A model generated the notes under the pieces. That model saw nothing but the letters and a program-made list of their open reading frames with translations, ran no database searches and was not told the DNA's origin. Of a stretch of DNA of 64,000 nt, positions 9,622 through 62,344 are shown piece by piece. This DNA comes from Shigella phage ESh15. Position 1 is the stretch's first letter. Every line of letters starts with the position of its first letter. A program made the position numbers and the translations under genes. The stretch lies in the sequence record ON528725. One strand, given 5' to 3'.

Positions 9622-9641
9622 ATTTTTCCACTTACTAAAGA

Positions 9642-9676
9642 AATCATTATACTCTAATCCATCCTTGGATGTAAAC
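9642..9676 (-). promoter_or_regulatory. T4-type early promoter cassette (GTTTAC -35, TATAAT-like -10)
   Basis: Minus strand reads GTTTACATCCAAGGATGGATTAGAGTATAATG; upstream of ORF 9424-9621. Confidence 0.55.
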
Positions 9677-10293
9677 TACTTAACGAAATTAATTTCTACC
9701 GGATGAACAACAGGTTGAGCAGTGATATATTGAGTAATTGCTTTCATGACTAGAGCTTCAGAACCAGGATTTTTCTCAACGAATTCACGTGCTTGGTTAT
9801 GAGCTTCAAGTTCACTTAGTAAACCGCTTCGTTGGCATCCACGGTCTTGAGTACCCTGTTCAGATAAAAAGACGACGATGTATTTTTCGTCATCATCATA
9901 CGGTTTAGACGGTTGAGCAAATGTTCCTTTACTTCCGAAAGGAGAGTTATGCCGCCACATATCACCGTGAGGAGTTTCAACCTTCGTGTATTCATGCGGT
10001 CCATTTTTCTTAGTTTCTTTCCATGGAACTTCATGGACCTTAGGGTTAGGACATTCAATAAAATGCTCATCTAAATCGGTAGAGAATATTAAAGTAAAAC
10101 AATTACTGAATTTACCAGCACCTGCCTGATAAATTTTACCTTCAGAAGTTCTAATTTCACAAACTGAGCCGGCATCAGTAACTTCTAAAACTTCAAAAGG
10201 CTCGATAAGGTCATATGAGAACATGTTTTTAAGGCGTGGAGTAATATCCCCATTTTTAAAATTCATTTTATAAAAAGTATTAACTTTAAACAT
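9676..10293 (-). CDS. Hypothetical protein, 205 aa
   Basis: Minus-strand ORF with RBS-like GAGGAA upstream; no recognisable motif. Confidence 0.5.
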   Translation of the reverse strand: MFKVNTFYKMNFKNGDITPRLKNMFSYDLIEPFEVLEVTDAGSVCEIRTSEGKIYQAGAGKFSNCFTLIFSTDLDEHFIECPNPKVHEVPWKETKKNGPHEYTKVETPHGDMWRHNSPFGSKGTFAQPSKPYDDDEKYIVVFLSEQGTQDRGCQRSGLLSELEAHNQAREFVEKNPGSEALVMKAITQYITAQPVVHPVEINFVK

Positions 10294-10305
10294 AATTTCC
10301 TCAGT

Positions 10306-10321
10306 GGGAGCCGAAGCTCCC
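10306..10321 (-). other. UUCG-loop hairpin without U-run in the 5' leader of ORF 9676-10293
   Basis: GGGAGC-CGAA-GCTCCC between two co-directional ORFs. Confidence 0.4.
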
Positions 10322-10328
10322 AGTTAAA

Positions 10329-10694
10329 TTAGATATCAAATTCATTAAGAACTACATCAAAGATTGCTTCGAGATGTTCAGGTTTAGCTCGGTTGCTCAG
10401 GATATGACGAATCCAAGTTTTAACCAGAAGTTTACGATTATCACCATTCCAGCAAGGATGAGTACCTAAATCACGCTGACGGAAATCATCATCTAATGCA
10501 ATTTTAAAATTTGAACCTTCCATCGTGATTGAAACCGTGATACCATTTTCAAATCGCATATAAACGTAATTAGGAGTCATGCACTGTTCGATTTCACAAA
10601 CTGTACCGTTTTTGTGTTTCCATAAGCAAATAACTTCAGAAGAACCAGCGATACCGTTAGAAACATATTTACGTTCGAAGTTGATGTAGTTCAT
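10329..10694 (-). CDS. Hypothetical protein, 121 aa
   Basis: Minus-strand ORF preceded by an early promoter cassette. Confidence 0.5.
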   Translation of the reverse strand: MNYINFERKYVSNGIAGSSEVICLWKHKNGTVCEIEQCMTPNYVYMRFENGITVSITMEGSNFKIALDDDFRQRDLGTHPCWNGDNRKLLVKTWIRHILSNRAKPEHLEAIFDVVLNEFDI

Positions 10695-10721
10695 TTTATT
10701 CTCCAGATGTTTAAGTTGTTT

Positions 10722-10764
10722 GTTGGTACAGGTCTATAATAACATAACCTGTACCAAAGTAAAC
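10722..10764 (-). promoter_or_regulatory. Early promoter cassette with inverted repeat (TTGGTACAGG...CCTGTACCAA) around the -10 region
   Basis: GTTTAC -35 on minus strand; upstream of ORF 10329-10694. Confidence 0.5.
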
Positions 10765-10768
10765 TGTT

Positions 10769-11137
10769 TTATGCAACTTTAATCCAATTGTCTAAATTTA
10801 AAACACCTTTGGCTTTCATTTTTTCGATCAGGTTATCTGCTGTAATGCGTCCATTTTGATACCATGTAACATCTTCAGAGTAACCAGTTTCTTCGTCAAC
10901 ATATGTTTCTGAACGAATTTTACCGGTAATAATAGTTTTTAATTCGTATGTGTCACCTGTGAAAAAGTTTGCTAACACAATTTTCCAAGAGAAATCATCA
11001 GAAGGACCTTCAGGGGTCATACAACTTACGATCTCAAATTGCTCTTTGTATAACATCCACTGGAATTCTTTAATTTCGATAGCTTTATAACCGTCGTGGT
11101 CTTTACATTTGATGTATGAGTTCAGATTGATTTTCAT
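10769..11137 (-). CDS. Hypothetical protein, 122 aa
   Basis: Minus-strand ORF preceded by an early promoter cassette. Confidence 0.5.
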   Translation of the reverse strand: MKINLNSYIKCKDHDGYKAIEIKEFQWMLYKEQFEIVSCMTPEGPSDDFSWKIVLANFFTGDTYELKTIITGKIRSETYVDEETGYSEDVTWYQNGRITADNLIEKMKAKGVLNLDNWIKVA

Positions 11138-11169
11138 TTTGTTCTCCAGTTTGTTTTATTGATTAGGTG

Positions 11170-11208: not shown

Positions 11209-11244
11209 ATCTTTTTAAACTTTTTCTGCCCTAAACGCACAAAA

Positions 11245-11262
11245 GGGAGACCGAAGTCTCCC
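11245..11262 (-). terminator. Intrinsic terminator with UUCG loop after the small basic protein gene
   Basis: GGGAGAC-CGAA-GTCTCCC followed by a U-run in the minus-strand transcript. Confidence 0.6.
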
Positions 11263-11267: not shown

Positions 11268-11447
11268 TTATGCAACAACCTTTCCAAAACGAGAAGCATC
11301 ATCTCGAAGAACTGCACGTGCTCTGCGCATGATCTTCTCAACTGTTTGATTAATACGAGAGTTCGACCCACGCTTGTATCCAGCGCGTTTAGAGATACCA
11401 TCAACTTTCTTTTCAACTGCTTTCTTTGCTTTAGCTTGTTTTGCCAT
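11268..11447 (-). CDS. Small, highly basic protein (59 aa, MAKQAKAKKAVEKK...), not in the ORF track
   Basis: Hand-translated ATG-initiated ORF; Lys/Arg-rich; followed by a UUCG hairpin and U-run; track instead lists an out-of-frame ORF at 11231-11416. Confidence 0.5.
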   Translation of the reverse strand: MAKQAKAKKAVEKKVDGISKRAGYKRGSNSRINQTVEKIMRRARAVLRDDASRFGKVVA

Positions 11448-11612
11448 TATAAATTCTCTTTAAATGAAAATGCAGGACTTATTGACATTGCCTGCGCAAG
11501 CCCTCAAGGGGAACATAGGTTTTTGGATATTTAACGACCAGGATAACCATAAACCCGTCATCATACCAACCACGACTTAGACAGATAACCTTTTTCTGAC
11601 GCGTGATAGCAA

Positions 11613-11861
11613 TTATTTCAAAGTAATAACAAAATGACGAACTGCTTTACGAGCTGCTGAAGCCAAAGGCTTAGCATATTTCAGTTCATCTTTTGCTTCC
11701 AGTTCAGCAGCCAGAGTAGCCTGAGCAGGATTCAGATGTTTGAAATAACGCAGGATTTCCAGTGCTTCGGCTTCAACATCAATTGAAGCGCCGTAGTTTT
11801 CGTGACCGTTATTCCATGCGTTGCGTTGCAGTTCAAGAGCGTGTTGTAATTGTTTAATCAT
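11613..11861 (-). CDS. rIII: rIII lysis-inhibition accessory protein
   Basis: 82 aa, same size as T4 RIII; adjacent to gene 31. Confidence 0.75.
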   Translation of the reverse strand: MIKQLQHALELQRNAWNNGHENYGASIDVEAEALEILRYFKHLNPAQATLAAELEAKDELKYAKPLASAARKAVRHFVITLK

Positions 11862-12318: not shown

Positions 12319-12375
12319 CTTATTTCCTTGTTGTTTGACGATAGATTAATAATACCATACTATTCGTAAAGCATA

Positions 12376-12684
12376 TTACATAAGAAGCAAACGTTCTACC
12401 GGAGTACCATCAACCGAAATTACTTTATCAAGGCGGAAAGAACGCCACTGACCTAACTTGGTATCGAATGCTCGAACTGATTCACGAGGTTCATAACGAA
12501 CTTCTGTTGCCGGATTGTTATTTTCATATTTGACTTCAAGTTCATCGCGCGAAGCAAACATAGTGCGTACCTCACCGTTAGCCTTTTCAAATACAACACA
12601 ATGAACGCCTACAGACAGAATAGTTTTAATACGTTCACGAAGAACCATAGTTTCTTGTTCAGTTAAAATCATATTATTCACCAC
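12376..12684 (-). CDS. Hypothetical protein (31.1-position)
   Basis: 102 aa ORF between gene 31 and cd. Confidence 0.5.
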   Translation of the reverse strand: MVNNMILTEQETMVLRERIKTILSVGVHCVVFEKANGEVRTMFASRDELEVKYENNNPATEVRYEPRESVRAFDTKLGQWRSFRLDKVISVDGTPVERLLLM

Positions 12685-13255
12685 AAAAGTTTCGAATTTG
12701 TTCCCAATTCAGAGAACGAAGATTATTACGAGAGTACTGAATTACTTCAATACCAGCTTGTTTAAGAATGTCTGCCCAATTTTCAGGAGATCGGTCATAT
12801 AATTCTGCATATACAACCTTTTTAATACCTGACTGCGTAATAGCTTTAGTGCAATCAGGACACGGAGAAAGCGTCGTATATAACGTAGCACCTTCAATAG
12901 AATTACCTTTACGAGCTGCAAACAAAATTGCGTTCAGTTCCGCATGGATTTCGTTATTAGCAGACCATGCACTATGAGCGGCCCGGTGTTCTTTAGCCAA
13001 AACAAAATTATCGGCCCGTCCAAATGCTGTAGTGCCTTCTTTATGTCCAGCAACGATGACCGGACTTGGTTTATTCTTCAACCAGCCTTGTTCAGTAGCA
13101 TGGTCACAACAGTTTATACCACCTGAAGGAGAGCCATTATATCCAGTAGAGATAATGCGTCCATCTTTTTCAATGACTGCGCCAACTTTCCATGAACAAC
13201 ATTTTGATTCTTGAGAAATCAGATATGCAATCTGAAGGTATGTGCTAGCTTTCAT
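12674..13255 (-). CDS. cd: dCMP deaminase
   Basis: 193 aa, same as T4 Cd; zinc-binding deaminase motifs HAELNAI and SPCPDC. Confidence 0.9.
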   Translation of the reverse strand: MKASTYLQIAYLISQESKCCSWKVGAVIEKDGRIISTGYNGSPSGGINCCDHATEQGWLKNKPSPVIVAGHKEGTTAFGRADNFVLAKEHRAAHSAWSANNEIHAELNAILFAARKGNSIEGATLYTTLSPCPDCTKAITQSGIKKVVYAELYDRSPENWADILKQAGIEVIQYSRNNLRSLNWEQIRNFCGE

Positions 13256-14247
13256 TATTGAACCTTATTAATATAAGTTAACAGCTCTTTAGTTTGTTCC
13301 CAACTGATGCACGCATCGGTAATGGAAACGCCATAGGACATATTATCAGAAATTTTTTGATTTCCTTCATGTAGGAACGATTCTATCATAATTCCTTTGA
13401 CCAAATCATTAGCTGCTAAATTTTTACCAATACCAATTTGATTGCTATAATGCCCATCAGCGTTTGCATGGCTACAGTCAACCATTACATAATGATTCAG
13501 ACCTACTGCCCTTGCTTTGTTAGAAGCTTCTTGAATATCAGAAGAATGATAGTTTGGGCCATTGGTCCCACCACGCAATACGATATGCGTATTCTGATTA
13601 CCTTCAGCTTCAACAATGCCTACAGTACCATCGACGTCCATACCCATATACCGATGAGGCCAGGCGGCACTATACATCGCGTCTGTAGCTACTTTAATAG
13701 AACCATTGGTTGCGTTCTTAAAGCCTACGCACATCGGTAGACCTGAAGCAATTTCACGATGTGTCTGACTTTCAGTCGTACGGGCGCCAATAGCAACCCA
13801 TGAGAAAATACCAGAAAGATACTTAATCGTGAATGGGTCTAATACTTCAGTTGCTAATGGAAGTCCCATACGTAGAAGTTTACGACACAATGTTCGTGCA
13901 ACTATAAGACCGTGGTTCATATCAAAACTTCCGTCAAGATATGGATCATTTACAAGACCTTTCCAACCTACGGTAGTTCGAGGCTTTTCAAAATAAACGC
14001 GCATCACTAACAGAACATTAGGAAGACGAGTTTGAAGTTCAGCCAGACGTTTGCCGTATTCAACAGCAGCAATAGGGTCATGAATTGAACAAGGACCTAC
14101 AACAATAAGTTTGCGTGGGTCTTCACCGTTCATAATCGAATTAACTTGTTCGCGATGAGAAGCCACTTGTGATGCGTAAGCTTCCGACAAAGGAATAATC
14201 TCAGCCAGTTCTTTTGGAGAAATAAGTTTTCCGACGACAGGTAACAT
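13255..14247 (-). CDS. 3-deoxy-D-arabino-heptulosonate-7-phosphate (DAHP) synthase, class I-alpha, AroG/AroF/AroH-like
   Basis: 330 aa; conserved blocks LIVVGPCSIHD, EKPRTTVGWKG, IGARTTESQ, VLRGGTNGPNY, VDCSHAN, IESFLHEGNQ, SITDACISWE match E. coli AroG; stop overlaps the cd start (TAATG). Confidence 0.85.
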   Translation of the reverse strand: MLPVVGKLISPKELAEIIPLSEAYASQVASHREQVNSIMNGEDPRKLIVVGPCSIHDPIAAVEYGKRLAELQTRLPNVLLVMRVYFEKPRTTVGWKGLVNDPYLDGSFDMNHGLIVARTLCRKLLRMGLPLATEVLDPFTIKYLSGIFSWVAIGARTTESQTHREIASGLPMCVGFKNATNGSIKVATDAMYSAAWPHRYMGMDVDGTVGIVEAEGNQNTHIVLRGGTNGPNYHSSDIQEASNKARAVGLNHYVMVDCSHANADGHYSNQIGIGKNLAANDLVKGIMIESFLHEGNQKISDNMSYGVSITDACISWEQTKELLTYINKVQ

Positions 14248-14367
14248 AACAATCCTTAGGAGATATAAACAGATTCTGATTCAACAATACCTTTAACCGG
14301 ATTAGACAGGCTAAGTTGGTAGTGCTCAGATTTATGACCATTCTCTATAGTAATGAGATAGCTCTCA

Positions 14368-14604: not shown

Positions 14605-14624
14605 TTCGATTTCCTCATTTGTTG

Positions 14625-14661
14625 GTAGAGTTATAGTACCACAACTCCACCATGTTGTAAA
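14625..14661 (-). promoter_or_regulatory. Early promoter cassette
   Basis: GTTTAC -35 on minus strand; upstream of ORF 14368-14604. Confidence 0.5.
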
Positions 14662-15344: not shown

Positions 15345-16430
<1,086 letters not shown>

Positions 16431-16431
<1 letters not shown>

Positions 16432-16730
16432 TATTTTATTCCTAAGAAAGCTTCAAGAATACGAATGTTATGTTCGCGCCGGTCTTTATTAATTTCAGCA
16501 ACGTTTTTATTAATTGACGTGCTTCTAACGTTTGAAGAAATAAATTTAATCATATGACTTTTGAGTTGTTGCAAATCCAACCCTTTTTCTTTAGCCGCTT
16601 TACGAAGAGCTTTACCTGCTTCATCTAGTGCCTTTGCAGCATCTTTGTCATAATTGTCGAGTGACATTCCATGGCAGATATCAATATACTCATCAGAACG
16701 TTTGATGTAATTCTCTAGTAATGTTTTCAT
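16431..16730 (-). CDS. Hypothetical protein
   Basis: 99 aa minus-strand ORF with early promoter cassette upstream. Confidence 0.45.
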
Positions 16731-16754
16731 TTAGATTTCCTCAATTATCCATAG

Positions 16755-16789
16755 GAGCATTATACTCTGCTCCCGAGAGTTTGTAAACT
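16755..16789 (-). promoter_or_regulatory. Early promoter cassette
   Basis: Plus strand CATTATACTCTGCTCCCGAGAGTTTGTAAAC; upstream of ORF 16431-16730. Confidence 0.5.
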
Positions 16790-18159: not shown

Positions 18160-18194
18160 AAGCCATAGTAACACCATCCTTGGTGTTTGTAAAC
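18160..18194 (-). promoter_or_regulatory. Early promoter cassette upstream of the alc-like gene
   Basis: GTTTAC -35 on minus strand, followed by a GGAGAAAA RBS and ATG. Confidence 0.5.
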
Positions 18195-19344: not shown

Positions 19345-19377
19345 TTAATTGTACCACAATCCTTGTGGTATGTAAAC
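19345..19377 (-). promoter_or_regulatory. Early promoter cassette upstream of rnlA
   Basis: GTTTAC -35 on minus strand with an inverted repeat (ACCACAA...TTGTGGT). Confidence 0.5.
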
Positions 19378-25341: not shown

Positions 25342-25481
25342 TTTATTCTCCTTAACAAGCTTTAATCAAAAGATATAAACAAACTAACATAACCACTGCC
25401 ATAATATAAGGTGCTAACATTTTGATTTCCTCTCATTTGTTTTGATAGGACTACTATAACATAGCCCTATCTTGTTGTATA

Positions 25482-25871
25482 CTACTTTTTAAAAGTTTTT
25501 TGCAAAAGTTCGATGATTTCGTCGACGTTAGTTTCATCTACTACACAATGAATTTTTGTTACACCTAAAACTATGCCTTCGTTAACCGGTTGAGGCTTTT
25601 CTAAAGTTACCTCGTTGAAGTATTTGAATTCTTCAGGGTAAAGTTCAAAATATGTCTCTTCCGGACCACCAGCAGAACATTCTGTGCCATCTTCCATGGT
25701 TACACATACTACGTTTAGGCATCCATCATAATCATGTTCCATTCCATTTACAACAAAACTTGGACCATGCTTCTCAAGCAAATCTAGCATAAAGCCGTTA
25801 TTGTACGGGGCCTCTTCGATGAATTCATCTTTAAATAAAGGGTTAAAGATATAAGTTTTTCCGATTTCCAT
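25482..25871 (-). CDS. Hypothetical protein, tandem paralogue A
   Basis: 129 aa; shares GKTYI, DLLE/DLIELHGPSFVV, TMEDGTE/TMQDGTE and YFELY blocks with the adjacent ORF. Confidence 0.5.
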   Translation of the reverse strand: MEIGKTYIFNPLFKDEFIEEAPYNNGFMLDLLEKHGPSFVVNGMEHDYDGCLNVVCVTMEDGTECSAGGPEETYFELYPEEFKYFNEVTLEKPQPVNEGIVLGVTKIHCVVDETNVDEIIELLQKTFKK

Positions 25872-25900: not shown

Positions 25901-26263
25901 TTATTTTATTCCAAAAATTTCTTTAATTTCTGCAATCACATCTCGAGCATTTTCTACAGTAACTTCAAAGATGAGTGACTGTTTAGAAATAGACTCTGGA
26001 GATACCTCGATGAAGTGTTTGAACTCATCATCGTAAAGCTCAAAATATGAACCTGGAGGACCATCAAAACCAAATTCAGTACCGTCTTGCATAGTTACGC
26101 TGGTTACGCATTTATCATCATCGTACTCAGTGTTCATGTCCTTTACAACAAAACTAGGACCATGGAGCTCAATCAAATCCAACATATCAGCATTTTGTGG
26201 GCATTCATTGGCAAATGCAGCTTTACATTCTGGATTGATGATGTACGTTTTTCCAATTTTCAT
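25901..26263 (-). CDS. Hypothetical protein, tandem paralogue B
   Basis: 120 aa; paralogous to 25482-25871. Confidence 0.5.
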   Translation of the reverse strand: MKIGKTYIINPECKAAFANECPQNADMLDLIELHGPSFVVKDMNTEYDDDKCVTSVTMQDGTEFGFDGPPGSYFELYDDEFKHFIEVSPESISKQSLIFEVTVENARDVIAEIKEIFGIK

Positions 26264-26322: not shown

Positions 26323-26353
26323 AACTTTTTCGGTAATTTACAGATACTCAAAA

Positions 26354-26371
26354 GGGAGACCGAAGTCTCCC
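26354..26371 (-). terminator. Intrinsic terminator after gene 32
   Basis: GGGAGAC-CGAA-GTCTCCC followed by UUUUG in the minus-strand transcript. Confidence 0.65.
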
Positions 26372-29660: not shown

Positions 29661-32600
29661 ATGGCCGACATCAAACGTAAGTTCAGAGCCGAAGACGGTC
29701 TGGACGCCGGTGGCGACAAGATTGTTAACGTAGCATTAGCCGACCGTACAGTAGGTACTGATGGCGTAAACGTTGACTTCCTTGTACAAGAAAACACCGT
29801 TCAAGTATATGATTCTACGCGTGGATATAACAAAGGATTTGTTGTTCTTTATGACAACCGTTTATATCAAGCAATAAATGATATCGTGTCTCCTTCCGGG
29901 GCATTTAACCTTTTACAATGGCGTGCAGTTCGTACTGATGCACAATGGATAACTGTAGCTTCTGGGGCTTATCAACTTTCTTCAGGTGAATCGATTTCGG
30001 TTAACACTGGTGCCGGCAATGATATGGTTTTCACGTTGCCAAATACTCCGGTTGATGGTGATACTGTTGTTTTGGCTGATATTGGTGGACGAACCGGGAC
30101 AGTTAAAGTACAGATTAACGCGTCTGTACAGAGTATTTTAAACTTTAGAGGTGAACAAGTTCGTACAGTTTTAATGACGCGCCCACGTTCACAACTATTG
30201 TTTGTGTTTAGTAATCGTTTGTGGCAGATGTATATTACCGATTATGGTAAAGAATCAATCACTGTTACACCTGCGACACCATATCAAGCACAAGCAAATG
30301 ATTTTATCGTTCGTCGTTTTACTAGTGCAGCACCAATCAACATTACACTTCCACGTAATGCTAACAATGGTGATATAATCAGCCTAGTCGATTTAGATAG
30401 ATTAAACCCACTGTATCATACATTTGTTAAAACATTTGATGATACAACGTCTATTGGTGAAGTCGGGACTCATATTGCCGAAGGCAGAAATGACTCTGAC
30501 GCGTTTTTTGTTTTTGATGCTGCAAATAGTTTATGGCGTATATGGGAAGGAGACCAGAAATCGCGTCTTCGTATTATCCGTGCGGATTCAAATATTCGAC
30601 CAAATGAAGAAGTTCTTATTTTTGGCACAAATAACGCTACACACGGAACTATTAATCTTACGCTGCCTTCCGGAATTTTGAGCGGTGACACTGTTAAAAT
30701 TTCAATGAACTACATGCGTAAAGGCCAAACGGTAAAAATTAAAGCTGCCGAAGGTGATACAATTGCTTCTTCTGTCGCATTACTTCAGTTCCCTAAACGT
30801 TCTGAATATCCACCTGATGCTCAATGGGTCTCTGTTACTGAACTAGAATTCAATGGTACTACTTCATATGTTCCTGTATTAGAATTAGCGTATATCGAAG
30901 ACACCGTTGCTGGTACACGCTATTGGGTTGTTCAACAAAACGTCCCAACTGTAGAACGTGTCGATGCTGGAACTGATACAACTAGAGCTCGTGTAGGTGT
31001 TATTGCTCTTGCAACTCAGGCACAGGCAAATGTTGATTTTGAAAATTCTCCGGCTAAAGAAGTTGCTATTACTCCGGAAACATTGGCAAATCGTACAGCA
31101 ACTGAAGCTAGACGTGGTATCGCTAAAATTGCTACAACAGCACAAGTTAACCAGAATTCCACAGCATCATTTGTGGACGATACTATTGTTACGCCTAAAA
31201 AACTAAATGAGCGTACAGCAACTGAAACTCGTCGTGGTCTTGCTGAAATTGCTACTCAGGTTGAAACCGATGCTGGTCTTGATGACACAACGATTATTAC
31301 ACCTAAGAAATTACAGGCACGTCAGGGTTCTGAAACACTATCTGGTATAGTTAAATATGTATCAACTACTTCTGCTACTCCTGCTGAAACTCGTGGGGCC
31401 GCAGGCACTAATGTTTATAATAAAACCGTAAATAATTTAACTATTTCTCCTAAAGCCCTTGACCAATATAAAGCAACTTATGCTCAACAAGGTGCAGTAA
31501 TTTTAGCTGTTGATAGTGAAGTAATTGCTGGTCAATCTCAAGCAGGTTATTCTCATGCTGTAGTAACTCCTGAAACACTACATAAGAAAACTTCTACTGA
31601 TGGACGTATTGGTTTAATTGAAATTGCTACGCAAGCAGAAACTAATGCTGGGACTGATTATACACGTGCAGTAACGCCTAAGACGTTAAATGATAGGAAA
31701 GCTACGGAAGGATTATCCGGCATAGCCGAAATTGCTACGCAAGTTGAATTTGATACTGGAACTGATGATACTCGTATCTCGACTCCACTGAAAATTAAAA
31801 CTCATTTTGATTCTTCTGACCGTACCAGTGTTAATTCTGATTCCGGACTTATTGAAGAAGGAACCTTGTGGAACCATTATACTCTTGATATTTCTAAAGC
31901 AAATGAAACACAACGTGGTACACTTCGCGTAGCGACCCAGGCAGAATCTAATGCAGGAACTTTAGATGATGTTCTTATTACTCCTAAAAAGCTTTTAGGG
32001 ACTAAGTCCACTGAAACGTCTGAAGGTGTAATTAAGGTTGCTACTCAGGCTGAAACTGTAACAGGAACTTCTACTAATACTGCTGTATCTCCTAAGAATT
32101 TAAAATGGATTGTCCAGAATGAACCAACATGGGCTGCTACCACAGCAATTCGTGGATTCGTTAAAACTTCATCCGGTTCTATTACATTTGTTGGTAATGA
32201 TACAGTCGGTTCAACGCAACCTTTAGAATCATATGAAAAAAATAGCTATGCTATATCTCCATATGAATTAAACCGTGTACTTGCTAACTATTTGCCATTA
32301 AAAGCAAAAGCTGCTGACGCAAATTTATTAGATGGTCTAGATTCATCTCAGTTCATTCGTAGGGATATTGCACAGACGGTTAATGGTTCACTAACCTTAA
32401 CCCAACAAACGAATCTGAGTGCCCCTCTTGTATCATCTAGTACTGCTACGTTTGGTGGTTCAGTTTCGGCAAATAGTACATTAACTATTTCTAATACCGG
32501 AACAGCTACTCGTCTGATTTTTGAGAAAGGACCTCAAACTGGAACTAACCCAGCGCAGACGATGAGTATCAGAGTTTGGGGAAATCAGTTTGGTGGCGGT

Positions 32601-33536: not shown

Positions 33537-33544
33537 GAGGTATT

Positions 33545-34672: not shown

Positions 34673-34677
34673 ATTTA

Positions 34678-34695
34678 GGGAGACTTCGGTCTCCC
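34678..34695 (+). terminator. Intrinsic terminator after gene 35
   Basis: GGGAGAC-TTCG-GTCTCCC followed by ATTTTTG. Confidence 0.65.
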
Positions 34696-34702
34696 ATTTT
34701 TG

Positions 34703-34710: not shown

Positions 34711-34734
34711 TGGTATACATATAAGGAGACAACT

Positions 34735-35400: not shown

Positions 35401-35408
35401 GAGGACTT

Positions 35409-38516: not shown

Positions 38517-38523
38517 GGAGAAG

Positions 38524-38537
38524 GGACTTCGGTCCCT
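38524..38537 (+). terminator. Hairpin after gene 37 (attenuator/terminator)
   Basis: GGGAC-TTCG-GTCCC followed by TTTTTAT. Confidence 0.55.
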
Positions 38538-38546
38538 TTTTATAAT

Positions 38547-39098: not shown

Positions 39099-39107
39099 GG
39101 AGGTATT

Positions 39108-39767
39108 ATGGCAACACCAAAAGTGTCATTTTCGCCTAGTGATATTCTATTTGGGTTGCTAGATCGTATTTTCAAAGATAACGCTACTGGAAAGGTTTTA
39201 ATGTCCCGAGTAGCGGTAATTATTCTTTTGTTCCTAATGGCACTAATATGGTACAAAGGAAGTATTTTGCTGGATTATTATGTAAGATCTAAGTATGATA
39301 CTTATACTGAAATAATCCAAAAAGAACGAGCTTTACGTTTTGAATCTGCGGCTCTAGAACAACTGCAAATAGTTCATATCTCATCTGGTGCAGATTTTAG
39401 TGCTGTGTATTCTTTCAGACCTAAAAACTTAAATTATTTCGTCGACCTTATAGCTTATGAAGGCAAACTACCTAGCACAATTTCTGAAAAGTCTCTTGGT
39501 GGATTCCCGGTGGATAAAACGGCCAATGAATATATAATTCATTTAAGTGGCCGTCATTTCTCGTCTAAATCAGAATTTGCATTTTTGCCTACAAAATCTA
39601 AGACTGCCGAACTTTCTTATATGTATAGTTGTCCATACTTTAATTTGGATAACATCTATGCTGGAACTGTGACGATGTATTGGTATAAGGGGAATAATAT
39701 ACTTGAGGAAGACCGCTTAGCGGCTATATGCAACCAAGCGGTCCGAATACTAGGAAGGGCTAAATAA
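39108..39767 (+). CDS. t: Holin (lysis-inhibition sensor) T
   Basis: 219 aa (T4 T 218 aa); N-terminal region and single transmembrane segment closely match T4 holin; late promoter upstream. Confidence 0.9.
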   Translation: MATPKVSFSPSDILFGLLDRIFKDNATGKVLMSRVAVIILLFLMALIWYKGSILLDYYVRSKYDTYTEIIQKERALRFESAALEQLQIVHISSGADFSAVYSFRPKNLNYFVDLIAYEGKLPSTISEKSLGGFPVDKTANEYIIHLSGRHFSSKSEFAFLPTKSKTAELSYMYSCPYFNLDNIYAGTVTMYWYKGNNILEEDRLAAICNQAVRILGRAK

Positions 39768-41901: not shown

Positions 41902-42534
41902 TCACAGTACGTTAGTTACAAGGGTAATGATTTCTTTGGACACATTAGGGAAGTCAATGTAAGTATATTTACCACCGATTTTAATCTTAACATCATTTTC
42001 AAGAGAAGTAAACAGCTTTGATTCAGTTTCTGACATGTTGTATGCAAAGATTCTAAGAGCGCCATCTCGTCGAATTTCAATTTGGCGAATACCTAGAACT
42101 CGTTTTGCAAATCGAACTTCCAAGTTACTACGGTTTTCACCAATTTCTTTAACTTCAACTTTATCTTTAATATTTTCAAAAACAAAGTTTGCTAATTCAT
42201 GCATTTCAGGAGTAACTCCACGTGCTTTTCTGGTGTTACGTTTCTGAAGAAGTTCTGGAGCATTTTCTTGGGCAAAGAGGTCTGCAGCTTTTTGGATAAT
42301 ATCCATTGCTTCGCCTGTTGCTACAAGTCCATCACCGGATTTTTCGACTAAACCTTTCTTAATCAATACACCAATGTTAGAGTTAACAACTGATGCATTG
42401 TATTCTGCTTCCAGAGCTTCACGGACATTGGCAGCAGTGGTGAAGTTGTTCTTAATGATATAAACCATTATTGCAGCAGTTTTTTCATTCAGAGCGTTTT
42501 CAGAAGCTTTGATGATGTAAGTAACTTTAGACAT
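41902..42534 (-). CDS. motA: Middle-promoter transcription activator MotA
   Basis: 210 aa (T4 MotA 211 aa); N-terminal MSKVTYIIKAS and NSNIGVLIKKGLVEKSGDGL match T4 MotA. Confidence 0.9.
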   Translation of the reverse strand: MSKVTYIIKASENALNEKTAAIMVYIIKNNFTTAANVREALEAEYNASVVNSNIGVLIKKGLVEKSGDGLVATGEAMDIIQKAADLFAQENAPELLQKRNTRKARGVTPEMHELANFVFENIKDKVEVKEIGENRSNLEVRFAKRVLGIRQIEIRRDGALRIFAYNMSETESKLFTSLENDVKIKIGGKYTYIDFPNVSKEIITLVTNVL

Positions 42535-42600
42535 TTTATTTCTCCAAATTAGTATTTGTTTTGATAGGTCTATAATATCATGTTTGAAGCAAAAGTAAAC
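42529..42600 (-). repeat. Direct repeat copy 1: motA promoter plus leader
   Basis: About 70 bp nearly identical to 42848-42921. Confidence 0.7.
42565..42600 (-). promoter_or_regulatory. Early promoter cassette upstream of motA
   Basis: Plus strand GATAGGTCTATAATATCATGTTTGAAGCAAAAGTAAAC. Confidence 0.55.
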
Positions 42601-42637
42601 TTTATTTTGGGCTCTTTTTCAAAAGCCCTGGTAAAAT

Positions 42638-42853
42638 TTACAAACTCATTTCTTTAATAAGGCTAATAAGTTTTGCCTTTTTAGAACGAAGCTTTTCTAA
42701 ATGATGTCCATTTGAACCGCGAACAACTAAAGAATTGATTTCAACTTCTAAGAAATTTAATTCTTCAACAAGTGCTTTACGTAGAGCATTCATACCAGGT
42801 TTAACTTTACCGAAACGAGTAGTTGTGTTTTGGGTTAATTTCATTTTAGACAT
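42638..42853 (-). CDS. Hypothetical small protein behind a duplicated motA-type promoter and leader
   Basis: 71 aa; leader and first codons (MSK) are copies of the motA leader. Confidence 0.45.
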   Translation of the reverse strand: MSKMKLTQNTTTRFGKVKPGMNALRKALVEELNFLEVEINSLVVRGSNGHHLEKLRSKKAKLISLIKEMSL

Positions 42854-42921
42854 TTTATTTCTCCAATTTGGTTGTTTTGTTTTGATAGGTCTATAATATC
42901 ATGTTTGAAGCACATGTAAAC
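42848..42921 (-). repeat. Direct repeat copy 2: duplicated promoter plus leader
   Basis: About 70 bp nearly identical to 42529-42600. Confidence 0.7.
42886..42921 (-). promoter_or_regulatory. Duplicate of the motA promoter cassette, upstream of ORF 42638-42853
   Basis: Near-identical copy of 42565-42600. Confidence 0.55.
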
Positions 42922-42947
42922 TGTTTTGTGAGAAAAAATGCACAAAA

Positions 42948-42963
42948 GGGAGCCGAAGCTCCC
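42948..42963 (-). terminator. Intrinsic terminator after gene 52
   Basis: GGGAGC-CGAA-GCTCCC followed by a U-run in the minus-strand transcript. Confidence 0.6.
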
Positions 42964-45155: not shown

Positions 45156-45231
45156 GCTAATTTCCTCAATTGATTAATGTTTTTGTAATCCATGAGAGCA
45201 TTATACTCTGCTCTCAAGAGTTTGTACAATT

Positions 45232-45449: not shown

Positions 45450-45490
45450 TTGATAGGACTACTATACCATAATCCTACCGTAATGTAAAC
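45450..45490 (-). promoter_or_regulatory. Early promoter cassette
   Basis: Plus strand GATAGGACTACTATACCATAATCCTACCGTAATGTAAAC; upstream of ORF 45232-45432. Confidence 0.5.
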
Positions 45491-45964: not shown

Positions 45965-46002
45965 ATAGGACTACTGTATCATAGTCCTACTTAGTTGTAA
46001 AC
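45965..46002 (-). promoter_or_regulatory. Early promoter cassette
   Basis: Plus strand GATAGGACTACTGTATCATAGTCCTAC...GTAAAC; upstream of ORF 45683-45946. Confidence 0.5.
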
Positions 46003-53337: not shown

Positions 53338-53784
53338 TTATTTAAATTTAATTTTCTGAAGTGTATCAATTGCAGCTAAACGCCCTTGTTCACTTTTAAC
53401 CGTAATGACCACATCACCTGATACGATCACCGAACCATCAACAAATTCTATAGAGCCTTTTTTGAAATCGACAGCTGTATCTGGTTCCGGAACTTCTTCA
53501 AAGAATTTAAATTCTGCACCATAAATCAGAATATCACCTTGCATACTATGAATAGTTCGGCCATAATCGCCTACGGCTTCTACAGCAATCACTGAAACAC
53601 CATAACCAATCATCTCTTCCACAATAAAATCTTTAGACAATAAAGTAGTATGCAGATTAGTATTAAGACGTTTACCAGTCGTATTAAGAATTCTCAAGAA
53701 ATTATCTTCCTGTCCTTTGATAATACGATATTTCTTACCAACTTCAAAACCTTTAAAACCTTTAAAAGACGTATTAAAAGCCAT
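53338..53784 (-). CDS. Hypothetical protein, 148 aa
   Basis: Minus-strand ORF followed by a hairpin terminator. Confidence 0.45.
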   Translation of the reverse strand: MAFNTSFKGFKGFEVGKKYRIIKGQEDNFLRILNTTGKRLNTNLHTTLLSKDFIVEEMIGYGVSVIAVEAVGDYGRTIHSMQGDILIYGAEFKFFEEVPEPDTAVDFKKGSIEFVDGSVIVSGDVVITVKSEQGRLAAIDTLQKIKFK

Positions 53785-54606: not shown

Positions 54607-54663
54607 AATATTCTCCTCTTGTTTTGATAGGTCTATAGTATCATAGACCATAGTTGTTGTACA

Positions 54664-55247: not shown

Positions 55248-55667
55248 TTATGCAAAAGATGCTGGACAATATTTTTTGATTTGGAACTCAGGAACTACCA
55301 TGAACTGTCCAGCGAAAACGATGTTATAAAGCTTAACACCATCTTCTACCCATTGGTCGCTAATAAATCCGGCGATTTGCTTAGTTTTCCATGGCGTTCC
55401 ATCAGTTGCAGAAGCAATAGTAAATTCATGGTCTTTTACAACTAAAACAGACCTGCATAGTCCCCATTTGAACGCTTTTTCTTCTGGTTCAATGAATTGG
55501 CTTGAGACGTAGCCAATGTTGCCATCAGCATCACGAACTTTAACTTGATGCGGACTAAAGAGTCCACAACTTACAGAAAGAACTTCAACCAACTTCCCAG
55601 CAACTTTAGAGCGAGAAGCAACAGGTACATATACGTAATCACCTGTAGAGAGATTTGCAATATTCAT
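55248..55667 (-). CDS. Paralogue family member 1 (C-terminal GFISDQWVEDGxKLYNIVF motif)
   Basis: 139 aa; shares N- and C-terminal blocks with 55677-56162 and the C-terminal block with 56225-56716. Confidence 0.5.
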   Translation of the reverse strand: MNIANLSTGDYVYVPVASRSKVAGKLVEVLSVSCGLFSPHQVKVRDADGNIGYVSSQFIEPEEKAFKWGLCRSVLVVKDHEFTIASATDGTPWKTKQIAGFISDQWVEDGVKLYNIVFAGQFMVVPEFQIKKYCPASFA

Positions 55668-55676
55668 AATAATTCC

Positions 55677-56162
55677 TTAAGCTTTACGAGGAGACACATA
55701 GCGAGTGATTTCAGATTCTTCAACAACTCGGAAGTCACCTAAGAATACAATATTGTATAGCTTTTTACCATCTTCAACCCATTGGTCGCTGATGAAGCCG
55801 CACATAGTATCAGTTTTGCTTGGATAACCATATTCGTCGATGAAATCAAATTCTTTATCAGTCTGGAATTCAACGCCTTTGCAAAGGGCCCATTTGAACT
55901 GTGCATTATGCTCTGTAGATTCAACTTTTTCTCTTGAAGCAAAAGCACTACTCACAGGCGTTTCCAAGAACTTTGCACGAACATAAGCAAATTGGGTTTC
56001 CTGTGTCCCAAAACTAGGAATAATACGAACTTTTACCTCAGAATCTTCATCTTTAACGCCTTCTTTAAGTTGAATACTTACAACTTCGACCAATTTTCCT
56101 GCGGCTTTAGAACGAGATTTGTTAGATACGCGAACGATTTCACCAATAATACCAAGATTCAT
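55677..56162 (-). CDS. Paralogue family member 2 (start at internal ATG, MNLGII)
   Basis: 161 aa from ATG with GAGAGAAA RBS; SRSKAAGKLVEV and GFISDQWVEDGKKLYNIVFLGDF blocks shared with member 1. Confidence 0.5.
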   Translation of the reverse strand: MNLGIIGEIVRVSNKSRSKAAGKLVEVVSIQLKEGVKDEDSEVKVRIIPSFGTQETQFAYVRAKFLETPVSSAFASREKVESTEHNAQFKWALCKGVEFQTDKEFDFIDEYGYPSKTDTMCGFISDQWVEDGKKLYNIVFLGDFRVVEESEITRYVSPRKA

Positions 56163-56224
56163 AATTTCTCTCTCTTTGTTTAAATTGAATTCACTATACT
56201 CCATCCATCCTTGGATGTACAACA

Positions 56225-56716
56225 TTAATTTAGAATATTAACCACAGCACTACGTGGAACTACACTAAAATCACCGGCATGAACAACGTTCAGAAGTTCA
56301 ACCCCATCTTCAATCCACTGGTCAGTTACCCAGCCACTTACTGGACCAGCGAATGGGCGTCGAATTGAAACAGCTTTACACAACAAATCAGTAGGCTCAA
56401 TAGGCTTAATCAGAGTACCATACATACAAGCGATATCCATATCAAAGATGTCTTTAACTGGTTCTACTTCTTCAATCAACAGTTCAAAGTCGGTGCTTGG
56501 AAGGGCGGTAGTAGAAATTGTACCGTATGAATTTTTAATTTCTAAGAATAACCAAGGGCCTTCAGCTTGTTTGATGAAGTTAACAATAGTGAAACTATTA
56601 CCTTGAGTGGCACCTAAAATTTCACAAAACTTTTCGTAAGCTCGCACTGAAGCACCGTACCAGTTGATTTGTTTTTCGTCTTTCAGGATGTAAGTAGCCA
56701 TAGCAGTGATATTCAT
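56225..56716 (-). CDS. Paralogue family member 3 (dexA.1/motB-region)
   Basis: 163 aa; C-terminal GWVTDQWIEDGVELLNVVHAGDFSVVP block shared with members 1 and 2. Confidence 0.5.
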   Translation of the reverse strand: MNITAMATYILKDEKQINWYGASVRAYEKFCEILGATQGNSFTIVNFIKQAEGPWLFLEIKNSYGTISTTALPSTDFELLIEEVEPVKDIFDMDIACMYGTLIKPIEPTDLLCKAVSIRRPFAGPVSGWVTDQWIEDGVELLNVVHAGDFSVVPRSAVVNILN

Positions 56717-59840: not shown

Positions 59841-59991
59841 AATATTTTCCTCTGTCTTACGGACGTTAGGTCATTTAGCTGATAAGCTTATAATATCATG
59901 CCCTCAGGTAGTGTACACTCTTTTTCGTAAAATGCTTTAATTTTTTATGTGTTATAATGGTTCTGAGTTCCATCCGGTTATTCCAATCCAG

Positions 59992-60600
59992 TCAGTAACT
60001 GACAATAGTCAGATTCCAGATTGTATAATTTCCGTCTTGAATAATAGAATCTACACGCAGTGTAGTCCCTATAGGGAGCATAAATTCACATTCGTCAGAT
60101 ATAAGTCTAGCATTAGACCGTCTTGTCGCTTCAGGGAAAGCTCCATTGAACTCACAAGATGGCGCAGCCAGAATCATGTTAAGCATATGTTCACGGAAGT
60201 TGAAAGCAAATGGTGCATCTTTGATACAGAACATATTAAATGTTCCGTAAAAATTATACGAAGCGAAGTTACGTGCTACACCGAACACCGGGCTGAAGCT
60301 CATTACTCTGTCAAATTTAATAATACTACCAATGCCTTTATCAACGAGTGTGGCCATAGTTTTCTTAGAGATTCCACGATACATTGTCTCAGGAACAGAA
60401 GACGTCCAATTTCTACGAACGATTGAACTTAACTCCTGTTGAATACAGTCTGGCTTGTTTTCCATACACTGCCACAGTATACTTTGTTCAATGTCGCTGA
60501 ATTGACTATCAATTTCGTACTGCAATACATCTTGATATTCGGGGTTTTGAGCACGACGAACCATTTCTTCAATTTCACACTCGTTATACGGCATAAACAT
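59992..60600 (-). CDS. ModA/ModB-like mono-ADP-ribosyltransferase
   Basis: 202 aa (T4 ModA 200, ModB 207); R-S-E triad candidates (YRGISKK, SFSP, ISDECEFMLP); position upstream of the Srd-like gene. Confidence 0.7.
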   Translation of the reverse strand: MFMPYNECEIEEMVRRAQNPEYQDVLQYEIDSQFSDIEQSILWQCMENKPDCIQQELSSIVRRNWTSSVPETMYRGISKKTMATLVDKGIGSIIKFDRVMSFSPVFGVARNFASYNFYGTFNMFCIKDAPFAFNFREHMLNMILAAPSCEFNGAFPEATRRSNARLISDECEFMLPIGTTLRVDSIIQDGNYTIWNLTIVSY

Positions 60601-60811
60601 TTAGGTTTCTCCTGTGGTTGATAAAGGTATAGTATCATCATCGGAAGAGTTTGTACACTAAAAATTCAACATTTTTAAATGAATGATTTTGTATAATCGA
60701 GATAAAGGGTCATATTCTAAGTCTTCAATTTCCACAATCTCAAATCGAGAGATGCCTGAGACCATGTACTCTTGTTCAGATTGACATGTCATGATAGACC
60801 TCCATTTAAAG

Positions 60812-60848
60812 ATAAGCCTATCATAACACGAGAGGAGGGAATGTAAAC
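60812..60848 (-). promoter_or_regulatory. Early promoter cassette
   Basis: GTTTAC -35 on minus strand; upstream of a small unlisted ORF (about 60795-60646). Confidence 0.45.
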
Positions 60849-61189
60849 TACTTTTTAAGCTTTCCGACTAAAGGTCCATCAGGGCCAGGTTGTTCTATCA
60901 TGAATAAGGATGCTTTAAGAAGCAATGCTAACCCTTTCACCATTCGATACCATATCTCAAAGTCCTTTTTCTTGGTTTCCACTAAGAATTGCTCTTTCAA
61001 ATGCTCTTTCATTTCCAAGGACTCCATGGTGGTGGGTCGTCATAATAAGAGGCTAGGTCTTTCAGGACTTCTAATGGTAAACTAAAACCATGGCGTTGTA
61101 TAATACTATCAATTTCATTGACAAGATCACCACGTTGTTCTTTAGGAGCCTTGACTTCAGGCTCATCAAACATACTCATCAAGTCCATA

Positions 61190-61654
61190 TTATTCACCGA
61201 GATAAAAACTAGCCGGTTCAGAGAATGTTTCTAGTGCTATACCTTTTGTCTTAAAAAATTTCCAAATAGCTCGTTGCAAATGGATTAAATCTGCTAATGA
61301 TGTAATAAAGTATTTTTTGGCAAAATACTTATGGTCTCGCTTTTCAAACAGGTCTAAACGCTTTTCAGGATTCACATAAACAGCATTTTCTGTAGATTCG
61401 TACCCTAAATCCTTTATGCCTTCTTCAAGACTAAACGGAGAATTTTTAGAATGAGTAATAGCTCCAACTCGCTCTACACGAATTTTGTAACCTTTAGGAA
61501 TCTGCAATTTGCAGAATTCTTCTACGATATATTGCGGATTATTTAGACTTTTGTTAATGAGAATAGCTATTTCTAGTGGAGTCTTATCTTCTACTGGTAT
61601 ATGTTTAAATGACTTGGCTTCAAGCAAATACATTTTAAATAACATAGCATCCAT
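61190..61654 (-). CDS. Hypothetical protein, 154 aa
   Basis: Minus-strand ORF between the Mod-like gene and soc. Confidence 0.45.
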   Translation of the reverse strand: MDAMLFKMYLLEAKSFKHIPVEDKTPLEIAILINKSLNNPQYIVEEFCKLQIPKGYKIRVERVGAITHSKNSPFSLEEGIKDLGYESTENAVYVNPEKRLDLFEKRDHKYFAKKYFITSLADLIHLQRAIWKFFKTKGIALETFSEPASFYLGE

Positions 61655-61860
61655 TATAATTTCCTCAATGGTTCACCCATATAAAGTTTTACAATACGTT
61701 CGCCTTCATCTTCGACGAGCTTTTCTTCATGTTTCTGGAATTCTTTAGCCATATTCTCTTCAATAACATCCAGCCAATCTTCTGGACCGACACCATCGTC
61801 CCAGCTTTTAAACCATTTAACTATCTTGTTCATTCGCAGCTCCCTGAGCTTGAACCACAA
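61654..61860 (-). CDS. Hypothetical small protein
   Basis: 68 aa ORF whose stop overlaps the next start. Confidence 0.4.
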   Translation of the reverse strand: MWFKLRELRMNKIVKWFKSWDDGVGPEDWLDVIEENMAKEFQKHEEKLVEDEGERIVKLYMGEPLRKL

Positions 61861-62043
61861 TCAGAATAACTTGACCCGGAATCACCAGGCCAAGACGATA
61901 CGTATGAATGATTATAACTTGAAGAGCTTGAAGCATTAACCTGTTTTGTTTTTGGACGAATAACTTCTTCCATCATGCCGTCACCAATGTATTCCCAACT
62001 TTTTTCATGTGTATCAGGAATAGGCATCATCCCTTCGCCTGGT

Positions 62044-62271
62044 TTAACAGCAAACAACTTCTTCAGTATCGTAAGCATTAATTGTTCCTCGAACAAAACG
62101 AACACCACCATCATCCCAACGGATTTCGGCATTAAATTTGACGTCTTCACCATCCATCATGAATGAGTGTACGACTACATCATCGTAATATCCAAGACCG
62201 TATTTCAACGAAACTTCTTGAGCAATCAAAGCACCTAATGTGTTATTAGGTTTAATCCAACGATTTAACAT
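62044..62271 (-). CDS. Hypothetical small protein (start at internal ATG, MLNRWIKP)
   Basis: Internal ATG has a GAGGAGAA RBS; the longer track ORF would run into the promoter cassette. Confidence 0.4.
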   Translation of the reverse strand: MLNRWIKPNNTLGALIAQEVSLKYGLGYYDDVVVHSFMMDGEDVKFNAEIRWDDGGVRFVRGTINAYDTEEVVCC

Positions 62272-62291
62272 ATTGTTCTCCTCTTGAGTAA

Positions 62292-62329
62292 GTAAGAATA
62301 TCTTAACACAGTTTTTAGTGGTTGTAAAC
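62292..62329 (-). promoter_or_regulatory. Early promoter cassette
   Basis: GTTTAC -35 on minus strand; upstream of ORF 62044-62271. Confidence 0.5.
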
Positions 62330-62344
62330 TGTAGAAACAAAAAA

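Follow-up and report, generated by a model that had tools for sequence, protein, structure and literature searches.

The present study examined repeated promoter elements in 64,000 nucleotides of DNA from Shigella phage ESh15 (sequence record ON528725; this whole stretch is called the window). The window carries 26 minus-strand sites that share one motif, and we are highly confident that these elements are sigma-70-dependent immediate-early promoters of the Pe class of T4-type phages, with orthology pointing to activity in vivo. Approximately 40% of the promoters appear to encode a stem-loop on the same nucleotides, with its arms around the -10 element or wholly in the spacer. Covariation and strand bias in these stems favour a structure formed by the sense strand, and we give a role of the hairpin at the RNA level an even chance. 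The account as a whole, in which early promoters are combined with an RNA-level hairpin and occasional recombination is a by-product, is in our judgement likely. A sequence-only reading had described the elements as cassettes resembling the promoter-plus-stem-loop (PeSL) modules proposed to shuffle genes in T4-type phages. That observation is largely real but overstated, and its evolutionary claim is not supported.

The window was assigned by megablast to the genus Mosigvirus (RB69-like T-even phages), with 96-97% identity to APCEc01, SHSML-52-1, LF82-41 and approximately 150 further records. Its gene order starts at the baseplate genes 29/48/54 and passes through alt, 30, 31, cd, pseT, rnlA, nrdAB, td, frd, 32, 59 and rnh to the plus-strand tail-fibre block 34-38/t, and then through asiA, motA, 52, ndd, denB, rIIB/A, 39, motB, dexA, dda, srd, modA and soc to 56/61. 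Genes lie on the minus strand except within 1-3465 and 29661-39767. Sites were sought with a regular-expression scan and then with a two-block position weight matrix (PWM) with a variable spacer, using a cut-off of S≥10, and the same PWM was run on the syntenic 72 kb of RB69 and T4 (loci L003-L006). Sites are named by their minus-strand early-promoter positions in window coordinates (e.g., P14662).

The 26 sites at S≥10 span positions 3850 to 62329, whereas the plus strand of the window has no site even at S≥8 and dinucleotide shuffles yield 0.5-2.2 sites. In an unbiased repeat search, the highest-ranking direct-repeat families (D1, D2, D3 and D6) were these same elements. A generic sigma-70 consensus scan found 60 sites against 64 expected and was uninformative for the early-promoter class. 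The consensus of the 26 sites is aaaaAataGTtTACa ... taTGnTAttATa..ccTATc.aaaa. The -35 element is exactly GTTTAC in 19 sites and differs from it by one or two substitutions (GTGTAC, TTGTAC, ATGTAC or GTATAC) in six; the remaining site, 12376, lacks GTTTAC(A/T), a sequence distinct from TTGACA. TG is present at -15/-14 in 21 sites (the TGn motif), upstream of a TAnnAT -10 element, and the spacer measures 17 nt in eight sites and 18 nt in 16 (24/26 at 17-18 nt). T-12 and T-7 never vary among the 70 distinct promoters of the window, T4 and RB69, and at least 90% of them have A-11. The UP region, taken as the 22 nt 5' of the -35 element, is 75% A+T and 41% A (consensus aaaaAataGTtTAC). All 26 sites lie on the coding strand, and an ATG preceded by a Shine-Dalgarno (SD) sequence follows 24-49 nt 3' of the -10 element.

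The elements are a family rather than copies of one cassette. Median pairwise identity is 50% over 58 nt and reaches 80% or more in one pair only, which does not agree with the description "near-identical". A long stretch said to recur at six positions was found as the exact 24-mer GTTTTGATAGGTCTATANTATCAT at 26280, 42558, 42879 and 54621 (none expected by chance); those near 45450 and 45965 are members of a related sister subfamily (GATAGGACTAC...), with more than three mismatches to the quoted string. Promoters precede 26 of the 93 minus-strand genes (28%), including 17 of the 59 open reading frames (ORFs) under 150 aa, which is far from the claimed "most", and 8 of the 34 larger genes. Automated assignment gave 25 genes, to which inspection of the sequence added P56222, upstream of motB.

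The elements may be regarded as ordinary immediate-early promoters because they match the RB69 list, an annotated T4 promoter and the published description of the class. Nolan et al. (2006; Virol J 3:30, Additional file 3) catalogued predicted RB69 early promoters. In the RB69 region, our PWM found 29 minus-strand sites and one plus-strand site at S≥10, and it recovered 27 of the 29 published promoters of the syntenic region one for one, the published name being the -35 start plus 14; the T4 region gave 22 sites. The T4 match at L005:14382 has a predicted start at 133295 and corresponds to Pe133295, annotated in the T4 RefSeq record; its positional orthologue in the window is P14662, located at the cd.3|cd.2 junction. 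Counting this one, at least nine promoter positions are conserved with T4. A review (Hinton 2010) describes T4 early promoters as UP, -35, TGn and -10 elements plus extra conserved positions, and the window sites share with them the A-rich UP region, GTTTAC(A/T), the 17-18 nt spacer, TGn, TAnnAT, conserved downstream bases, minus-strand orientation and a position 5' of early genes. The earlier identification as T4-type early promoters is thus upheld. However, the downstream consensus of the window is RB69-like (AGnCCTATCAAAAC) and not T4-like (ACAACTATCAACTACTGA), and the modB|modA and pseT.1|ORF231c junctions have a promoter in the window and none in T4; the converse also occurs. In contrast to RB69, with its single Pe:162713, the window has both P42921 and P42600, and its P9676 sits in a cassette absent from RB69. 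The promoter reading has already been published for RB69; it is known biology with little new. Stem-loops are not discussed in the paper by Nolan et al.

Site 12376 (12349-12376, minus strand, upstream of gene 31) differs from the other 25. A MotA-box-like TGCTTTA replaces its -35 element (block A score 5.1), and the site is probably of the middle rather than the early class.

A stem-loop embedded between the -35 element and +1 was found at approximately 11 of the 26 sites, fewer than "often" had implied, and a hairpin just upstream at five others. Together they amount to approximately 16 of 26, and the label "PeSL-like" is therefore fair. In a test window of -18..+22 around each -10 element, 10 of the 26 sites fold at ≤-8 kcal/mol and seven at ≤-12 kcal/mol, a value reached by 1.65% of random 40-mers. 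The native mean was -7.7 kcal/mol versus -5.0 kcal/mol for half-swapped chimeras, and none of 5000 permutations reached the native mean.

These stems fall into three geometries. In class A, the arms flank the -10 hexamer and the dyad axis is fixed between -12 and -11. Its eight members, all on the minus strand, have z values of -2.5 to -6.4, with seven of the eight at -3.2 or below and 0/200 shuffles reaching them. P10764 (10723-10764; 30.8|30.7 junction) has the stem TTGGTACAGG/CCTGTACCAA at 10723-10757 (z -4.3), which is conserved in T4 and in L024-L028, and P14662 (14623-14662) has a 13-bp embedded stem at 14623-14652 (z -3.9). P16788 (16754-16788; RB69 Pe:136687), upstream of two T4-absent ORFs (16240-16730), carries GGGAGC/GCTCC at 16754-16774 (z -2.5); P45229 (45194-45229), upstream of ndd, shares subfamily D6 with it, has an early-type TTGTAC -35 and carries GAGAGC/GCTCTC at 45194-45215 (z -3.8). 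The stem of P25482 (25444-25482; GTATAC -35; RB69 Pe:145300) lies at 25444-25471 and has the lowest z (-6.4). At P45490 (45452-45490, upstream of ndd.1), the stem at 45452-45479 includes two G.U pairs (z -4.7); at P46002 (45965-46002; denB|ORF270c; RB69 Pe:165795), it flanks the -10 element at 45965-45990 (z -3.3). P54664 (54630-54664; ATGTAC -35), upstream of cef, has GGTCTAT/ATAGACC at 54630-54649 (z -3.2, 0/200 shuffles); this inverted repeat and that at 10723-10757 are the two that had been quoted earlier, and both are present.

Class B consists of a short stem wholly in the spacer with the loop AAGGAT. It was found on the minus strand at P18194 (18165-18194; rnlA|alc; RB69 Pe:138093), as ACACC-AAGGAT-GGTGT at 18171-18186 (z -1.7), and at P19377 (19348-19377; denA|rnlA), as CCACA-AGGAT-TGTGG at 19354-19368 (z -2.0), and in weaker form at 9676, 56222 and 56777. 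Class C is the single long-range stem CCTCTAG...CTAGAGG at 55197-55233 of P55243 (55197-55243, minus strand), the 3' arm of which overlaps the motB.2 SD sequence. The RB69 orthologue of this stem carries the compensatory pair CCTCTGG/CCAGAGG.

The arms vary among promoters while complementarity is kept: GGGAGC/GCTCC, GAGAGC/GCTCTC, TAGGACT/AGTCCTA and GGTACAGG/CCTGTACC, and GGGACC/GGTCCC in T4. The outer positions hold the evidence; conserved promoter bases account for the inner two to four pairs, which are uninformative. In a fixed register, at least 8 of the 10 outer pairs form in 7 of 25 promoters (permutation p=2e-4), and the number of pairs per promoter is bimodal, at 8-10 or at six or fewer. 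Over the 70 distinct promoters, 81 cells are changed on both sides compared with 54.6 in shuffles (0/500), and register 0 exceeds every slid register. The paired fraction in the fixed register is 46.6% against 44.2% in shuffles, a modest difference because more than half of these promoters lack a class A stem.

The cd.3|cd.2 junction is the best-sampled orthologue, with 11 distinct sequences from the window, T4, four Mosigvirus phages and IMG/VR contigs with as little as 47% protein identity. Every one of the 99 cells holds a standard pair, compared with 23-54% in slid registers. Compensatory double changes occur at three of the nine pairs (A-U to G-C, G-C to A-U and U-A to C-G), and the nine single-sided changes all give G.U on the sense strand and none A.C. 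Over all stems, the ratio of G.T to A.C is 18:6. The sense strand also folds better than the antisense strand, at -13.7 versus -3.7 kcal/mol for P45490, -16.0 versus -8.9 for P25482 and -16.9 versus -8.1 for P14662.

The position of the hairpin follows the spacing of the genes. An embedded hairpin (≤-8 kcal/mol) was present at 11 of 17 promoters with the -35 element less than 25 nt from the upstream stop codon and at 0 of 7 at 25 nt or more (Fisher p=0.006), and T4 shows the same trend (8/12 versus 2/8). Among the roomy promoters, four have a canonical UUCG-loop terminator upstream and one a hairpin just upstream; inside the promoter, z is about 0 at four of these five, and the fifth, P11208, folds weakly (-5.5 kcal/mol). 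A hairpin followed by a U-tract occurs at four upstream hairpins only, all on the minus strand: GGAATCC-TTCG-GGATTCC+T7 at 62339-62363, just upstream of P62329; GGGAGC-TTCG-GCTCCC+T4 at 42944-42963, upstream of P42921; and GGGAGAC-TTCG-GTCTCCC+T4 both at 26350-26371, with P26322, and at 11241-11262, upstream of P11208. A generic terminator scan overlooked the gene 52 terminator because it over-extended the stem. The last two of the four hairpins are identical 22-nt terminators (GGGAGACTTCGGTCTCCCTTTT), downstream of gene 32 and of 30.9.

Related phages retain hairpins at these junctions in other forms. Distant relatives have a class B hairpin at cd.3|cd.2, where the window has class A, and the 30.8|30.7 junction of other relatives has no promoter but a GGCC-UUCG-GGCC hairpin placed after the stop codon and before the SD sequence. 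At denA|rnlA (window 19348-19377), the T4-like IMG/VR contigs L038-L042 keep the CCACA...TGTGG stem and have a MotA-box-like TGCTT instead of GTTTAC, which suggests a change of promoter class that left the stem in place. Hairpins of ≤-12 kcal/mol occur in 38% of intergenic spacers of at least 25 nt and in 9.5% of length-matched coding controls, with similar frequencies with or without a promoter.

We propose the following arrangement. Each promoter would start a short early transcription unit on the minus strand, with a short leader carrying an SD sequence and ATG. The transcription start is predicted 6-8 nt after the -10 element, inside or beyond the 3' arm, and the stem would form only in read-through RNA from the upstream unit because the transcript of the embedded promoter lacks the 5' arm. 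In that RNA, it may serve as an intercistronic attenuator, a 3'-end stabiliser or an insulator for the upstream message. Where the upstream gene ends far off, a conventional terminator hairpin stands upstream of the promoter; where it ends a few bases from the -35 element, the hairpin is displaced into the promoter. We put forward more tentatively, at somewhat below even odds, that the stem-loop is an intercistronic RNA element under selection and needed at most T-even early gene junctions, which would give an overlapping code of DNA (promoter) and RNA (hairpin) where genes are tightly packed, would persist through a change of promoter class (early to MotA-dependent) or the loss of the promoter, and would act as an insulator decoupling the stability or translation of neighbouring early messages.

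Several observations weigh against this account. Approximately 10 of the 26 promoters lack a convincing hairpin, and the class B spacer hairpins are individually weak (z about -2). No U-tract follows the embedded stems (typical tails are ...CCUAUCAAAAC and AUCAAAAC), and they are not canonical intrinsic terminators for that reason. When the G.T:A.C count is confined to the independent sequences of the window and T4, it is 8:2 (p=0.11), which is suggestive only. The PWM was trained on the window's own sites; 27 of the 29 independently published RB69 promoters were recovered nonetheless.

The geometry of P55243 has a counterpart in T4. Translational control by a promoter inside a hairpin is reportedly exerted at T4 genes e, 49 and I-TevI. 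P55243 resembles these cases in that its hairpin encloses the promoter, with the 3' arm over the SD sequence; read-through RNA would hide the ribosome-binding site and internally started RNA would expose it. Read-through transcripts may mask the motB.2 SD sequence in the manner of T4 genes e and 49. However, the known cases use late or middle promoters, and this geometry occurs at 1 of the 26 window sites.

A different explanation takes the elements as mobile PeSL modules, the main significance of which is the insertion, deletion and exchange of the accessory ORFs that they flank, such that their positions mark differences in gene content. We consider this strong form unlikely. It has experimental and comparative support in other T4-like phages. 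In RB49 and phi1, PeSLs consist of an AT-rich region, a promoter of the early type and a stem-loop, followed by an SD sequence and ATG; the stem-loop lies mostly between the -35 and -10 elements or overlaps -10, terminator activity was reported for one stem, and mini-circles arose from recombination between flanking copies (Arbiol 2010). PeSLs were subsequently extended to PST/T4 and nt-1/KVP40, with the stem just upstream of the promoter, and proposed for all T4-like phages (Comeau 2014). The window elements share this composite, the placements of the stem (between -35 and -10, over -10 or just upstream) and the G.T pairs within stems. They differ in that only approximately 60% of the sites have a stem-loop, the rest being plain promoters, and in that the stems are AT-rich and varied, not polyG/polyC; nor did the window show a significant association with indels.

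The clearest case in favour of shuffling is ORF71 (phrog_6200; 42638-42853, minus strand), which lies between P42921 and P42600 and is absent from RB69 and T4. The upstream copy of the repeat comprises P42921, its 5' untranslated region and the first three codons (42845-42921), and the downstream copy comprises P42600, its 5' untranslated region and the motA start (42526-42600), with a hairpin lacking a T-run at 42609-42628. The two copies have 75-77 nt in common, spanning GTTTAC to the third codon, with an identical core of 36 nt at 42555-42590 and 42876-42911, and the promoter-plus-ORF unit measures 321 bp (42600-42921). The single RB69 copy is a hybrid that matches P42921 in its upstream context and P42600 in its downstream context, and RB69 has no ORF71. 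The full region is present in 75 related records, while approximately 90 at 95-97% identity lack exactly some 320 bp, the latter number being an estimate from the count at 95-99% identity and the rows listed. The variable presence of one ORF between two cassettes among close relatives is a PeSL-like feature, and on sequence comparison the indel fits recombination between the two cassettes exactly, as one clean PeSL-type event.

Further points in favour of shuffling concern the elements themselves. One orthologous junction bears different cassette types in different phages. Cassettes may also have been copied around, because members of one subfamily occupy non-orthologous loci: those of D6 lie at 16747, at 45188 and upstream of T4 motB, and a T4 pair lies at L005:4144 and L005:17387. 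The latter, upstream of alt.-3 and alc, respectively, are two almost identical early-promoter cassettes of more than 60 nt within T4 itself. The motB-family trio of ORFs (55248-56716), a paralogue trio that the sequence-only reading held to be flanked by cassettes, is indeed bracketed by promoters on both sides, and the region, whose order is permuted with respect to T4, has promoters at all its junctions.

The general association is not observed. The window, with gene calls from a first-ATG caller corrected manually from the annotation of relatives, was compared with APCEc01, AV110, PhAPEC2 and RB69 (Mosigvirus) and T4 by blastn and tblastn. Promoters occur at 25 of the 91 junctions between consecutive minus-strand genes. 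Synteny with T4 is broken at 15 of these 25 and at 34 of the 66 others (odds ratio 1.4, p=0.49), and at least one of the 15 breaks (modA|srd) is probably a paralogue artefact. Breaks relative to any of the four Mosigvirus phages number 7 of 25 versus 11 of 66 (odds ratio 1.9, p=0.25), a small sample in which a weak association is possible. The claim that cassettes flank exactly the ORFs differing from T4 is not supported by these comparisons, and in RB69, 45 early promoters precede T4 orthologues and 13 precede novel ORFs (Nolan et al. 2006). The conservation of at least nine positions with T4 also argues against mobile modules. The proposal of modular gene shuffling fits the ORF71 indel and not a general association with breaks.

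Nor do the individual blocks follow the expected pattern. The DAHP synthase gene, which was said to be flanked by cassettes, and a 46-codon ORF (13255-14341, minus strand) lie between cd.2 and cd, are translationally coupled to their neighbours and have no promoter at either boundary. APCEc01, AV110 and PhAPEC2 have this block; RB69 and T4 lack it, and the RB69 junction shows an 18-bp overlap. ORF227c, ORF003c, ORF005c and ORF024c/025c likewise have no promoter at either boundary, and for a supposed NADAR block, no NADAR-named Pfam or PHROGs match was found among the 20 ORFs scanned. Of approximately 10 indels relative to the four close relatives, only ORF71 has both breakpoints in cassettes; most have other causes (the td intron and homing endonuclease of AV110, the modB deletion, the soc/56 hot spot and tail-fibre exchanges). 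We propose instead that the cassettes, as direct repeats of 45-90 nt, may at times be used as homologous recombination substrates, with the ORF71 unit as an example, and that this would be a by-product and not their main role. The ORF71 unit, and P16788 with its two ORFs, also resemble lambdoid morons (promoter-ORF-terminator insertions), being self-contained expression cassettes between conserved genes; however, the insertion is explicable by recombination between the phage's own repeated promoters, and the terminator is shared with neighbours.

A role of the stems at the DNA level, as palindromic operators of a phage or host protein (e.g., in early shut-off) or as cruciform or melting elements tuning initiation at -10, appears improbable. 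The fixed class A dyad axis is consistent with it, and the mechanism of T4 early-promoter shut-off is unexplained (Hinton 2010). However, a single repressor operator or other sequence-specific binder is excluded because the arms differ wholly between promoters (GGAGC, TAGGACT, GGTACAGG and GGTGGAGTT) while complementarity is kept. The cruciform was rejected because both strands would have to pair, whereas the wobble pairs are strand-asymmetric, with single-sided changes giving G.U on the sense strand and no A.C at the best-sampled orthologue. The retention of hairpins in other geometries or without a promoter at the same junctions, and the restriction of embedded stems to short intergenic spacing, also argue against action on DNA.

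The idea that the stems are functionless, arising from a self-complementary consensus (TGn/TAnnAT, ...CCTATC) and the shared ancestry of duplicated promoters, is very improbable: it draws on the inner pairs from conserved bases (T-15:A-8 and G-14:T-9), on a 3' arm that is often the family consensus AGnCCTATC and on the modest paired fraction over the 70 promoters, but is largely refuted by the chimera swap, the fixed-register permutation and the cd.3|cd.2 alignment, in which outer non-consensus positions co-vary, pair counts are bimodal and compensatory double changes separate orthologues at a register far above the slid ones.

The remaining promoters, all on the minus strand, are mostly shared with RB69. 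P3850 (3821-3850; alt|alt.-3; Pe:125323) lies outside the range covered by the sequence-only reading. P11208 (11180-11208; Pe:132117) is at 30.9|30.8, P26322 (26294-26322; Pe:146013) is downstream of gene 32, P29619 (29590-29619; Pe:149309) is upstream of rnh in the region divergent from gene 34, and P40104 (40075-40104; Pe:160217) is upstream of asiA. In the motB region, P56777 (56748-56777; Pe:8947) is upstream of the first motB-family paralogue (56225-56716), and P56222 (56193-56222; Pe:8387, published score 6.2) is a weak early-type site with a TTGTAC -35 (S=10.2). P59918 (59890-59918; Pe:12088) and P60658 (60629-60658; Pe:12829), upstream of srd and modA, respectively, have a GTGTAC -35, and P62329 (62300-62329; Pe:14950) is at the soc|mrh.2 junction, conserved with T4.

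P60848 (60820-60848; Pe:13466) is an intact early promoter in front of a 44-codon modB remnant (60658-60792). Compared with RB69, APCEc01, AV110 and PhAPEC2, modB has lost approximately 439 bp internally in the window, and the junction at 60774-60782 has a 9-bp overlap (microhomology). P9676 (9646-9676) is inside a replacement cassette that consists of ORF205, the promoter and a 30.5-like ORF; RB69 and PhAPEC2 lack it and have 30.6 in place of the ORF205 cassette. ORF205 (9676-10293) and ORF148 (53338-53784), both on the minus strand, match phrog_622 and may be distant paralogues.

P25482 is predicted to drive a 22-codon hydrophobic ORF, MLAPYIMAVVMLVCLYLLIKAC (25352-25420, minus strand), with its own SD sequence, followed by frd.1. 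No tblastn match to this ORF was found in the four Mosigvirus relatives, the ORF being too short for an informative result. Next to this promoter are two tandem FRD2-family paralogues (25482-25871 and 25901-26263, minus strand), to which relatives align with a single frd.2 copy; RB69 and AV110 have an extra approximately 260 bp at this position (ORF245c in RB69). A search for frd.2 in viral contigs returned one locus only. In the rIII-30.9 spacer, the window lacks approximately 100-135 nt at 11609-11613 (RB69 L003:14904-15007), and part of the spacer (11280-11564) is approximately 95% identical between T4 and the window and also well preserved in RB69 and APCEc01, an unusually high degree of conservation for a non-coding sequence. 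Rfam 15 gave no match at the gathering threshold in the whole window or in the conserved rIII-30.9 spacer of RB69.

The present results provide 25 predicted early starts and one probable middle start for the annotation of an RB69-like phage, and they correct the idea that these promoters mark accessory genes. The ORF71 unit, polymorphic in approximately 165 sequenced relatives, appears to be a clean natural case of gene gain or loss via repeated promoters. The new part of this study is quantitative: the stem-loops co-vary, look RNA-level and sense-stranded and seem to trade places with upstream terminators according to gene spacing. By sequence comparison, the covariation, the G.U bias of the sense strand and this trade-off suggest selection on the PeSL's stem-loop half as RNA, and the idea of an attenuator or insulator thereby becomes directly testable.

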